From a plasmid: DNA of 57,029 nt. The stretch is taken from sequence record NZ_CP066430.1; one strand, written 5' to 3'. Positions 15,001 through 18,000 of this stretch are shown in pieces. Every line of letters begins with the position of its first letter. Within the stretch, counting starts at the first letter, position 1. A program made the position numbers.

Positions 15001-18000
15001 ATTACTTCAGGTGATTCTATTATTCCAGCGGCATTGATGTATGAACACAAATTAATGTTTGAAGATAAAACGATTCATATTCCAGCTTATCCTACGGAAC
15101 AAATTCTAGCTGAAAAATTACATGCTACGTTTAGTTTCGGAAAAGATAATTCGCGCATGAAAGACTTTTATGACCTGTATATGATTCCAAAACTAGAACG
15201 TATCGATGAGAAAAACTTGTATAAGAGTGTTCAAGGAACGTTCAAGGAAAGAAATAATCAATCTGTGTTTAAAAAATTGTATAATCAGGAAATGCCTCAA
15301 TTGATGAAGGATGAGGGGTTGAGGGAAAAGTGGAAAAGATACCAACAAGAAAATTATTTTGCCAAAGACATTTCTTTCGAATCTACACTAACTTCCGTCG
15401 ATTCTTTGATGCAATCAATTGTAGAGCAAGAGAAAGTAGAACGAAAACAAAATTTTAAGAGATCACAACAAATGAATCAAGAAATGGAGAGATAAAAATG
15501 ATTAATAATGTAACTTTAGTAGGACGATTAACCAAAGATCCAGATTTACGTTATACTGCAAGTGGTACTGCAGTAGCGACTTTTACCCTAGCCGTTAACC
15601 GAAATTTCACGAATCAAAACGGCAATCGAGAAGCTGATTTTATCAATTGCGTGATTTGGCGCAAACCAGCAGAAACGATGGCGACATTAGCTAAAAAAGG
15701 CAGCTTGATCGGTGTTGTCGGACGGATTCAAACACGGACTTATGACAACCAGCAAGGACAACGTGTGTATGTGACTGAAGTTGTAGCAGATAACTTTCAA
15801 CTATTAGAAAGTAAAGCAGCGACAGAGAGCCGTGCGCATGCAGATCAATCGTCCACCAGTCCAAGCACCGCCACCTTTGAACAACGGGATACAGCGACGC
15901 CTAACAACAATGGATTGAACGCTTCACAGAATCCATTTGGTGGACAATCAATCGATATTAGCGATGATGATCTACCGTTTTAGTTCGAGAAAGAAGGAGT
16001 AAGCATGGCAAAAAAAAATAGTCTGACGATGGATCTATTGATACCCGTAATTGCATTTATAGACGGGATTTCTTTGGGTATCACTGAAAATCTTTTGGTA
16101 AATAGAATTGCGAAAGGATCACTATTTCTTGTATTCGTGTATCTTGTCTGTTCTTATCTTCTAAAAAGAGTAGGAAAGGATAATTCCTTTTGGCGATTGA
16201 CTAAAGTCACAATAGGCGCGACAGCTGTTATACTTACGGCTATTCTACCGCTTTATATGTAGGGTTAACGGGAAATCATTGAACTTCTTGCGAAATATTG
16301 TTATAATGAACATGAAAAAGAGGAGTTGCGCAAACAACCCCTCATTAACAGCACCGTTTAAAGAACGGCGGCTCAGATTAATTATTTATTGAGAAATAAC
16401 CGATCCTCGCTAAAGTGACGGTTATTTCTTTTTGTCATTTTTAAGCATATTTACAATCAAACTAATCAAAGCAATGGTAAACATACCAAAACCAAGAATG
16501 GTTTGAATTGTCTCATATGCGGACAAAAGGCTTACTCCTTTCATAGATTTTAGCACTTACATTCATAAGCACCACCACCTTCCAGAAGTCGCCACCGTCA
16601 TTAAACTTTACTGTCTTGATCATTATAGCATATCTAAAATCGAATAAAAATTCTCAATTTTAGCTGTTTTTGCTATAATTTTAGCGAGGTGATCGCGATG
16701 GAACATTATACTGGTTTACTCGATAAAATTCGGGTGATCAAGACACAGCCATTGCTTGTGCGATTTACATTACACACGAGTCATGAACCAATCAATTGTG
16801 TAGTGGCCAATATAGAAATAGCGGATAAATTGCTGATTTTGGAAGAAGGCAAGTATACTATTTCAGTGACAGGTCACTTCAATAAACGGAATCAATTAGT
16901 CATTGAATCGATGCAAATTAGAAACCCCGATCATTTTACGCGATCGATGGGCATATAAAAGAAGAGCTGCAATCCTAATGTAGGACTGCAGCTCTTTTTG
17001 TTTTACATAGAAACGGGAACAGGAAAAGGCCTTTTTAGGAAGGCACAAGTGCCTTCTCAATTGAAAAACCTTTCTCTCACTCCAACCGCCACCGCCGTTC
17101 GAGAAGAAAGGAAGTGAACGCTGCACGTTCACTAAGATAAGGGGTCTTGCAAAGCAAGACAAAATAGAAAAAACTTCCTCTCACCAAAAGGTTCGTTCCT
17201 GTTCGTTATCTCTTTATTGATTTGCCAGACCGGCAACAAGTTGCCTTTTATCACCAAAAAGCGACAAGGACAAGGGTAAATGGCACGCTGCGCGCCCTTG
17301 TCCTTGTCGCTTTTCGTTGATTCATTCTGGCCAACAAATCAATAAAGAAAGAACTAACGAAAGGAAGTAAAACCTTTCCTAAGAGGAGGCAGAATCAAAC
17401 ATGCGAAAGAAATTTGATTATTGGGGTGTTCCCTTCAGCGAATTATTCCCAAACTATCATGCACCACATACTGTCGAATGCGATTGTGGAGAAAGAGCGA
17501 AATGTATCAAAAGCTATCGTTTGTATCAATGTCCAATATGCGGGAAAAAATATACCTTGTCTTACGGCGATTACATTTTGATTGAAGAGAAAGGAAGATA
17601 AAATGATGGCTCAAAATTACTATGACGAATTTGTCAAATTACCTTTGGATAAAATGGCACAAAAAATGGAGGATATGACGTTCCTATACAACGAAACACG
17701 TGTTCCAAAAAAACATTATAAAGAAAAATTGTCGGTAGCTGTGGAAGAAATGATTGAATCAGGTGTCGAAATGAATCTTATTGCGACGTACTATCGAACA
17801 CTGGAAGAACTGAAAAAGCAAAATGCAAAATGGTTTTTCCAAGCCTTACTATGCTTGGAAGTAGGTGTCAAACCAAGCACTATTAAACCTTCTGAATACC
17901 AAGCTTTAGAACTAACGTATGCGAAATTTATCGAAACGAAAAAAGCCAAGACTGTTTCAAGTGAATGGTTAGATTATTTTGAAAATATCAATAAGTATGG

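Follow-up and report, generated by a model that had tools for sequence, protein, structure and literature searches.

A probable type I toxin-antitoxin module of the TxpA/RatA-SprG/SprF class on a conjugative plasmid of Enterococcus faecium

Genes and RNAs at the locus

The 57,029-nucleotide (nt) stretch of plasmid DNA considered here (record NZ_CP066430.1), called the window below, contains a minus-strand gene for a small hydrophobic peptide and, converging on it from the plus strand, a gene for a short antisense RNA. The locus is very probably a type I toxin-antitoxin (TA) module of the TxpA/RatA-SprG/SprF-BsrH class, located on an Enterococcus faecium conjugative plasmid. A module of this kind, pairing a single-helix peptide of Hol_Tox type with an antisense RNA that converges on its gene, had been proposed in an earlier note made from the sequence alone, and this core of the proposal was borne out by the Pfam and Rfam matches, the promoter and the RNA fold. 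The module is genuine and well supported, and its family is already known and annotated; it is neither hidden nor a new system. The features of the locus are listed below in window coordinates (ORF, open reading frame; UTR, untranslated region; aa, amino acids).

16279-16307, plus strand: antitoxin promoter, with TTGAAC at 16279-16284, a 17-nt spacer and TATAAT at 16302-16307 with a TG extension (promoter scan)
16314-16436, plus strand: predicted RatA-like antitoxin RNA of ~120 nt (Rfam RatA match and fold; ends inferred)
16391-16433, plus strand: antitoxin terminator hairpin, arms 16391-16402 and 16419-16430, U-run 16429-16433 (strand contrast and covariation)
16314-16615, minus strand: predicted toxin mRNA of ~300 nt, comprising 5' UTR, ORF and a 3' UTR that runs across the whole antitoxin gene (rli28 match, fold and terminator; ends predicted)
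16622-16630, minus strand: toxin mRNA promoter, extended -10 box TGCTATAAT (direct reading and alignment)
16591-16615, minus strand: 5'-terminal element GACAGUAAAGUUUAAUGACGGUGGC of the toxin mRNA, pairing with its own 3' UTR at 16347-16372
16599-16591, minus strand: 5' segment GACGGUGGC, partner of 16372-16364
16564-16566, minus strand: upstream ATG, preceded by GGUGGUG, opening a predicted 17-aa overlapping ORF MNVSAKIYERSKPFVRI (16566-16513; nucleotide alignment)
16535-16541, minus strand: Shine-Dalgarno (SD) sequence AAAGGAG, 8 nt upstream of TTG 16526 (direct reading and conservation)
16422-16526, minus strand: toxin ORF, 34 aa from TTG, MSAYETIQTILGFGMFTIALISLIVNMLKNDKKK (Pfam Hol_Tox, TTG invariance, substitution rates)
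16347-16372, minus strand: 3' UTR segment GCCGCCGUUCUUUAAACGGUGCUGUU, partner of the mRNA 5' end and situated inside the antitoxin target (duplex prediction and alignment)
16315-16343, minus strand: intrinsic terminator of the toxin mRNA, GAGGGGUUGuuugCGCAACUCCUC plus UUUUU, abutting the antitoxin start site (terminator scan)

Conservation was counted on an alignment of 30 complete homologous modules, to which all counts out of 30 refer. The antitoxin promoter agrees with the consensus at 10 of 12 positions, and its extended -10 element (TGnTAnnnT) occurs in 28 of the 30 homologs; the boxes TTGAAC and TGtTATAAT had been read in the same way in the earlier note, whose 14-nt spacer together with TGt gives the 17 nt counted here. 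The extended -10 box of the toxin promoter had been noticed as well, and it is indeed present, at 16630-16622 rather than at 16617-16625, a shift of 5 nt; TGnTAnnnT is aligned at this place in 26 of 30 homologs, and the corresponding -35 element is poor (TTTTTA, 16650-16645). From the promoter spacing the toxin mRNA is predicted to start at about 16616-16614. Both extended -10 boxes, the SD, the TTG start codon and all three hairpins are conserved across the aligned modules.

Both RNA families, like the conserved promoters, are demonstrated at the locus. The Rfam family rli28 (RF01492) matches 16637-16456 on the minus strand over the full model (1-186) with 101.7 bits against a gathering score of 45 (E = 2.3e-13), covering the toxin promoter, the 5' UTR and the first two thirds of the ORF. 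A RatA match converges on it from the plus strand, and both matches also exceed their gathering scores in a scan of the entire 57-kb window. The plus-strand RNA (124 nt) folds with -35 kcal/mol (z = -4.6 against shuffled sequences) into three hairpins at 16320-16343, 16350-16373 and 16391-16430, the last being the terminator followed by the U-run. The length predicted for the toxin mRNA is comparable to that given for txpA (270 nt) and bsrH (285 nt) in excerpts of PMC6562991.

The earlier note considered the locus hidden, its ORF too short and the whole invisible to standard annotation. For the toxin gene this fails, since RefSeq annotates the ORF: records with identical sequence carry the coding sequence (CDS) 16422-16544 as WP_002295624.1, named 'putative holin-like toxin' by PGAP; the genes for AbiEi/AbiEii, ssb and a hypothetical protein of 85 aa lie upstream of it. 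The RNAs are represented in Rfam by rli28 and RatA, and the corresponding module of the Listeria plasmid pLM80 is discussed in PMC9484302. The antitoxin RNA is not in the PLSDB gene table, which omits RNA genes, so that the original record may still annotate it; Rfam detects it. Many E. faecium plasmids of 55-60 kb, typed as conjugative (MOBP, MPF_T), share the 1.1 kb surrounding the locus at 100% identity, and 692 plasmid records in PLSDB, nearly all from Enterococcus, match this stretch.

The toxin peptide and its start codon

The toxin ORF ends with TAA (16424-16422, minus strand) and has three candidate start codons, GTG 16556 (44 aa), ATG 16544 (40 aa) and TTG 16526 (34 aa), all of which encode ...SAYETIQTILGFGMFTIALISLIVNMLKNDKKK; the ORF and the peptide are as the earlier note had written them. 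The Pfam family Hol_Tox (PF16935) is matched with 51.6-51.9 bits against a cut-off of 23.3 (E = 8.6e-14), and the match takes in the 34 residues encoded from the TTG, neither more nor fewer (model positions 1-34 of 34). The peptide consists of one hydrophobic helix, ILGFGMFTIALISLIVNML, followed by the basic tail KNDKKK, a pattern kept in 40 aligned relatives. A protein search gave 106 relatives, every one of them with PF16935, under the names 'putative holin-like toxin' or 'type I toxin-antitoxin system toxin PepG1', the latter given by NCBI to some of the close relatives. The profile search proposed in the earlier note, which named both Hol_Tox and Fst, was thus positive for the first, at 51.6 bits; at E <= 10 the Pfam scan listed no Fst family, a limit at which HMMER filters may still drop very weak matches.

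The ratio of nonsynonymous to synonymous substitution rates (dN/dS) of the ORF is ~0.14 over 27 homologs, which demonstrates purifying selection, and the other two frames are almost never free of stop codons. Within the ORF the codons for FGMFTIA (window 16459-16478, minus strand; TTTGGTATGTTTACCATTGC) are nearly invariant across genera even at synonymous positions, while the flanking codons vary freely; this hints at a constraint acting on the RNA within the ORF. Could the minus-strand transcript then be a non-coding regulatory small RNA (sRNA), the 'Rli28' first catalogued in Listeria, with the small ORF merely incidental? Rfam does class rli28 as an sRNA gene, rli28 responds to bile and to growth in biofilms in Listeria (PMC9484302), and the degree to which synonymous sites of FGMFTIA are conserved is unusual. 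However, the substitution pattern and the stop-codon content of the other frames, the invariant SD and TTG, the full-length match to a curated protein family and the toxicity of expressed relatives (PMC2887945; excerpts of PMC6393307) make this explanation highly improbable. Here 'Rli28' corresponds to the toxin mRNA's 5' part and not to a free-standing sRNA, although the transcript may have a dual role, coding and regulatory.

The likely start codon is TTG 16526, giving 34 aa. The TTG is invariant in all 30 homologs, and an SD resembling AAAGGAG is kept at the nucleotide level in all of them regardless of the frame upstream, whereas the RefSeq start, ATG 16544, has no SD. In the protein alignment the residues upstream of 'LLSAYE' are not conserved; the nucleotides there are conserved whatever the frame. 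The upstream ATG is likewise invariant (30/30) and shares the toxin frame in 12 homologs only, in which it starts a long toxin of 46-47 aa, the long form of 'PepG1'. In the clade of the window a 1-nt insertion (GGAGTAAGCC against GGAG-AAGCC) shifts its frame, so that the 17-aa ORF it opens overlaps the TTG; elsewhere the out-of-frame ATG opens ORFs of 17-43 aa that overlap the toxin start. The pair of in-frame starts known from SprG1, for a long and a short peptide, is therefore absent from the window, where ATG 16566 is out of frame. Because the SD and TTG are conserved, the upstream protein sequence is not and the frame of the upstream ATG varies, the conserved product appears to be a peptide of 33-34 aa. 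The upstream ATG could belong to a leader ORF or could simply be part of a conserved hairpin.

The same insertion could be taken as the mark of a decaying copy, inactivated by the frameshift and leaving both RNAs as relics, since it puts a conserved ATG out of frame in the clade of the window. This is improbable: the core ORF of 34 aa is intact together with its SD and TTG, all of them identical or nearly so across hundreds of plasmids, both promoters and both terminators are intact, and the upstream ATG is out of frame in 18 of the 30 homologs, from several genera, which again points to the short form as the conserved product.

Probably separate terminators and a predicted 5'-3' clamp in the toxin mRNA

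The hairpin overlapping the toxin stop codon was found where the earlier note had placed it. It overlaps the stop codon and the last four codons of the toxin, and its U-tract is the complement of the KKK codons. In 19 of 30 homologs its stability is higher on the antitoxin strand, and 6 of its 9 pairs are changed on both sides. Of the 30 homologs, 18 have at least five T within 8 nt after the stem on the antitoxin strand, and none has them on the toxin strand. This count after minimum-free-energy stems is noisy, owing to pairing between A-runs and U-runs and to the truncation of some sub-windows, and serves as a strand contrast only. The terminator scan gave a different hairpin for the minus strand, 16343-16320 followed by TTTTT. 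In 29 of 30 homologs this one has its greater stability on the toxin strand (-15.3 against -10.9 kcal/mol), because its G·U pairs become A·C mismatches on the other strand; 8 of its 9 pairs are changed on both sides and 98.1% are paired. Since the two conserved hairpins differ from each other in strand preference, the two RNAs most likely use separate terminators, which would place the whole of the antitoxin (~16314-16436) within the toxin mRNA (~16615-16314). The single shared bidirectional terminator of the earlier note finds no support, the first hairpin having its U-tract on the antitoxin strand only, although partial termination of the toxin mRNA may occur at the hairpin 16391-16430.

These results bear on the relation to par of pAD1, the Fst-encoding system to which the earlier note had compared the locus. 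A par-type module would have one bidirectional terminator shared by both RNAs, pairing through 5' repeats and a block of translation. Convergent RNAs with a hairpin between them at the toxin stop codon agree with it, and an A-run and a U-rich run border the stem of that hairpin, so that some termination in the toxin direction is possible. On the other side, no Fst match was listed at E <= 10, and a terminator specific to the toxin strand is conserved 75 nt further on. Pairing of the antitoxin with the non-overlapped 5' part of the toxin mRNA (RNAduplex) was no better than chance, being equalled by 189 of 300 shuffles, and therefore a second interaction site of the DRa/DRb kind, specific to par, is absent. 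The covarying 5'-3' helix described below moreover requires that the toxin mRNA read through the first hairpin. A par-type module has accordingly almost no probability here. Likenesses do exist, in that both are type I systems of enterococcal plasmids with convergent RNAs, a small membrane peptide and an mRNA fold sequestering the SD, whereas the peptide family is another one and neither the shared terminator nor the 5'-repeat complementarity and translation block of par is supported. Without an Fst match, a common terminator or extra complementarity, the analogy holds only as 'convergent RNAs on an enterococcal plasmid'.

The toxin mRNA is predicted to fold with -100.1 kcal/mol (z = -7.4 against shuffled sequences). 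Its 5' end forms a duplex with its own 3' UTR of -41.2 kcal/mol, where shuffled 5' ends give -25.0 +/- 3.2 and none of 300 reaches the native value; this tripartite 5'-3' duplex is present in 30 of 30 homologs. RNAalifold gave a long-range helix joining the start codon (UUGUC) to GACAA near the end of the ORF, with compensatory changes in two copies that have a different toxin ORF, and a second one joining CGGUGGC in the 5' UTR to GCCRCCG in the 3' UTR. The terminal helix occurs in the covariant forms GACAGUA/UGCUGUC, GUAGAA/UUCUAC, GUAGGA/UCUUAC and CUAGUA/UGCUAG. Pairs were counted on a MAFFT alignment of the 30 modules with flush 5' ends. For the five-helix model pairing is 96.9% and both sides have changed in 19 pairs, counts made up of a few clade-level events and not of many independent ones; none of 500 shuffles equals this and slid controls are 37-62% paired. 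Pairing is 98.8% in helix 1, the terminal one, where both sides have changed in 3 of 6 pairs, and 99.5% in helix 2. In 14 of 30 homologs the fifth pair of a competing local hairpin is lost, whereas these columns remain paired in the long-range helices. Covariation of the helices is thereby demonstrated.

In the clade of the window the SD is predicted to pair with ACUUCU at 16589-16584, with a probability of being unpaired of 0.05. As a feature of the family, sequestration of the SD was rejected, being strong in this clade only; pairing of the start codon is more general (mean probability of being unpaired 0.18 over the 30 homologs). When the region covered by the antitoxin was forced to be single-stranded in the folding, the SD and the start codon were not opened, so that activation induced by the antitoxin finds no support; nor does this kind of folding establish an effect on translation like that of SR4.

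The 3' partner of the clamp (16372-16347) lies inside the antitoxin target, so binding of the antitoxin and closure of the clamp should be mutually exclusive. It is tempting to speculate further, as a possible but rather doubtful model, that the 5' end of the mRNA (16615-16591) mimics the middle of the antitoxin and pairs with the 3' UTR (16372-16347), giving a closed, circle-like fold that would be inert in translation and possibly protected from nucleases. The antitoxin would then displace the 5' end by strand competition and so lay it open to decay, and the upstream AUG, out of frame in 60% of homologs, may belong to a mok-like leader ORF that couples its translation to the toxin start. In hok/mok/sok of plasmid R1 the full-length toxin mRNA is likewise folded back from 5' to 3' end, and Sok targets the 5' leader. 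The locus resembles that system in the fold-back and in the upstream ORF overlapping the toxin start (18/30 homologs); it differs in that the sequences are unrelated and that the target of the antitoxin is the 3' UTR, which in turn pairs with the mRNA 5' end, and the resemblance would be structural only. Neither a 5'-3' clamp nor a mok-like upstream AUG is mentioned in the available excerpts of the literature on the TxpA/RatA-SprG/SprF class.

The type I TA module would thus work as follows. The minus strand would be transcribed from the extended -10 promoter into an mRNA of ~300 nt, corresponding to Rfam 'rli28' plus a 3' extension, which would encode the 34-residue single-helix Hol_Tox membrane peptide from TTG 16526 behind the SD AAAGGAG. 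The plus strand would give, from its near-consensus promoter, the RatA-type antisense RNA of ~120 nt, with full complementarity to the entire 3' UTR and to the 15 nt that end the ORF. By analogy with RatA, SprF and SR4, the duplex would be cleaved in the manner of RNase III and the toxin mRNA would decay. The mRNA alone is predicted to be poorly translatable, its start codon being paired with GACAAAA at the end of the ORF, its SD with the upstream ACUUCU in this clade, and its 5' end being clamped to the 3' UTR by the covarying helix. The peptide would accumulate, and damage the membrane, only once the antitoxin RNA was no longer replenished, for example after plasmid loss or shut-off of transcription. 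Toxicity, transcript ends, RNase pathway and a role in plasmid maintenance are attributed to this copy from its relatives.

Known relatives, role and significance

T1TAdb gives for the TxpA/RatA-SprG/SprF class the geometry that was found here, namely an antitoxin promoter and a terminator hairpin across the toxin stop codon, kept in related loci (PMC8594479). A genome scan gave 39 such loci in Enterococcus, Vagococcus, Lactococcus and relatives, most of them with rli28 followed by a convergent RatA of 43.8-74 bits.

Similar loci are described on the Listeria plasmids pLM80, pLM7802 and pLM5446, where rli28, ratA and a small ORF occur together and both RNAs are highly expressed in RNA sequencing, rli28 and ratA being among the most expressed genes of pLM80 (PMC9484302). 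They share with the present locus rli28 lying over a small hydrophobic ORF, the convergent RatA and a large plasmid of conjugative type. The host genus differs, the link to TA systems is speculative in that work, which likens the ORF to BsrH at 38% identity, and terminators, start codon and 5'-3' pairing are not analysed there. Contigs labelled as Listeria are ~92% identical to the window over 1.1 kb. OR848971.1, OR847104.1 and OR847150.1, deposited as 'Listeria phage LM 4-14-1 / 4-11-1', are ~92% identical to this plasmid region, ssb and the TA module included, and these short contigs look like plasmid fragments rather than phage DNA.

The txpA-ratA system of E. faecalis was reportedly also studied by Wessner in 2015. 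The TxpA family was expanded by Fozo in 2010 to 118 members, some annotated as holin-like toxins and six of them in E. faecalis V583; EF3263 was toxic on overexpression in E. coli and had an antisense RNA of ~110 nt at its 3' UTR (PMC2887945). V583 has 8 rli28 and 7 RatA matches in Rfam, RatA being expressed similarly to its txpA mRNA, according to excerpts of Michaux 2020 (PMC7724050); the rli28 and RatA entries in the excerpted supplement all lie on the V583 chromosome (NC_004668.1), and none for E. faecium plasmids was found there. Evidence of transcription in E. faecalis comes from differential RNA sequencing (dRNA-seq) and Northern blots (PMC2887945 and PMC7724050, in part). The pairs at EF3249 and EF3263 resemble the present one in the TxpA family, including the holin-like names, the antisense RNA at the 3' UTR and the toxic peptide; they are chromosomal and often adjoin mazEF, and their peptides have other N-termini, whereas the copy here is plasmid-borne.

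In Staphylococcus aureus the SprF RNAs bind the overlapping 3' ends of the SprG RNAs and lower SprG levels (excerpts of PMC6393307), and SprG1 encodes forms of 44 and 31 aa (PMC10579593, in part). SprG1-3 and TxpA are described as toxic when overexpressed in excerpts of PMC6393307 and PMC6562991. SprG1/SprF1 (PepG1) and SprG2-4/SprF2-4 are alike to the locus in the peptide (PepG1 match, E = 1.3e-19) and in the antitoxin overlapping the toxin RNA's 3' end, and the 12 homologs with an in-frame upstream ATG could, like SprG1, give a long and a short peptide from one frame. Here the long form is frameshifted and the score stays just under the equivalog cut-off, and SprG1 lies on a prophage or pathogenicity island and not on a plasmid.

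In the excerpts of PMC6393307 and PMC6562991, TxpA/RatA, SprG/SprF and BsrH are said to pair at their 3' ends, and in those of PMC6562991 the duplexes RatA/txpA and SR4/bsrG are cleaved by RNase III, SR4 also altering SD accessibility from a distance. The Bacillus subtilis pairs txpA/RatA, bsrH/as-bsrH and bsrG/SR4 are, in the same excerpts, convergent RNAs overlapping 3' to 3' with ~100-140 bp of complementarity, toxin RNAs of 255-294 nt and RNase III-dependent decay. They differ in size (RatA 222 nt and TxpA 59 aa, against ~120 nt and 34 aa here) and in lying on prophage-like elements, and no 5'-3' clamp is mentioned for them in the excerpted parts of PMC6562991. Relatives have been tested in E. 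faecalis, S. aureus and B. subtilis, and the pair of rli28 and RatA has been described on Listeria plasmids.

A function as a plasmid addiction or stress module, as the earlier note had suggested, is plausible from these analogies. The main role may, as a rather unlikely alternative, be another: phage defence by abortive infection, stress or persistence, or protection of the incoming plasmid. The neighbouring AbiEi/AbiEii and ssb are compatible with this, as is the frequency of the module in tandem arrays and on chromosomes, settings in which addiction would have little point, and SprG/SprF levels respond to oxidative stress (excerpts of PMC6393307). Plasmid maintenance is, however, the classical role of plasmid-borne type I TA systems, and the alternative concerns the role only and not the molecular mechanism.

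Several points weigh against reading the locus as an active type I TA module that maintains its plasmid. The Rfam match to RatA (RF01776, 16304-16391, plus strand; E = 2e-5) reaches 49.2 bits, just 0.2 above the gathering score of 49. The NCBIfam model PepG1 (NF041589), the equivalog of the S. aureus SprG1 toxin with a curated cut-off of 70 bits, is matched with 69.5 bits by the 44-aa form, 0.5 below that cut-off, and with 67.9 bits by the 40-aa form; the 69.5-bit match (E = 1.3e-19) is clearly homologous. The frameshift destroys the long toxin form of 46-47 aa, so that the activity of this copy could be reduced. Sequestration of the SD is not conserved outside the clade of the window, the mean probability of being unpaired being 0.35 against an mRNA mean of 0.34 in partition-function folding of the 30 homologs. 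The plasmid also has the AbiEi/AbiEii pair, and a maintenance role of the module may therefore be redundant; the module occurs in chromosomes and in tandem arrays too, which fits less well with post-segregational killing. In the literature no paper on the module of this plasmid copy was found.

In the related loci, the module stands in tandem arrays of two or three copies at those designated L010, L024, L026 and L036, and also in E. faecalis V583 according to the excerpted supplement of PMC7724050. The same RNA scaffold (5' UTR, SD, TTG, 3' UTR and RatA-type antitoxin) carries unrelated toxin ORFs at L010:304-653, L010:1135-1485 and L026:1194-1491, with products of 43 aa (MHLAEITALIVVIATCGKALFEFLTAIVKLIQALTEAKKSKKK) and 27 aa (MTVYQALSLMIAFAILVLKINDKDNKK), which suggests an exchange of toxin cassettes inside a regulatory RNA frame that is itself conserved. 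Two occurrences are probably binning contamination: a module of this Firmicutes family in a contig of a Methanobrevibacter metagenome-assembled genome (MAG; L032, JAFQXD010000027.1) and a toxin copy attributed to an Acinetobacter MAG (P0068).

Just upstream of the module, the window has a gene with an AbiEi antitoxin domain and one for an AbiEii/AbiGii nucleotidyltransferase toxin, a type IV TA or abortive infection pair, at 13987-15495 (plus strand), followed by ssb (15498-15983) and an 85-aa hydrophobic ORF (16005-16262). On the other side a second good promoter (16651-16679, plus strand; TTCTCA, 17-nt spacer, TATAAT with TG) diverges from the toxin promoter and points at an ORF of 86-89 aa (16689/16698-16958) that ends at a strong hairpin, 16962-16996. 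A long, near-perfect hairpin at 17256-17313 (AAAGCGACAAGGACAAGGG...CCCTTGTCCTTGTCGCTTTTT) looks like a strong bidirectional terminator and gives spurious matches to plant microRNAs in Rfam. Farther away, group II intron RNA domains at 52211-52422 and 54812-54896 (plus strand; Rfam group-II-D1D4-5, 161 bits; Intron_gpII, 62.6 bits) indicate a complete group II intron on the plasmid.

The finding largely confirms an existing annotation. Its practical value lies in corrections, namely a likely 34-aa product from TTG in place of the 40-aa RefSeq CDS, the antitoxin RNA detected by Rfam, and the reading of rli28 as a toxin mRNA's 5' part. Specialists may find useful hypotheses on how the toxin mRNA is silenced in this class in the covarying 5'-3' clamp and in the upstream AUG that is kept whatever the frame. 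The 692 PLSDB records show that the conjugative plasmids of enterococci, which are vehicles of antibiotic resistance, commonly carry a type I TA system of the TxpA/RatA class.

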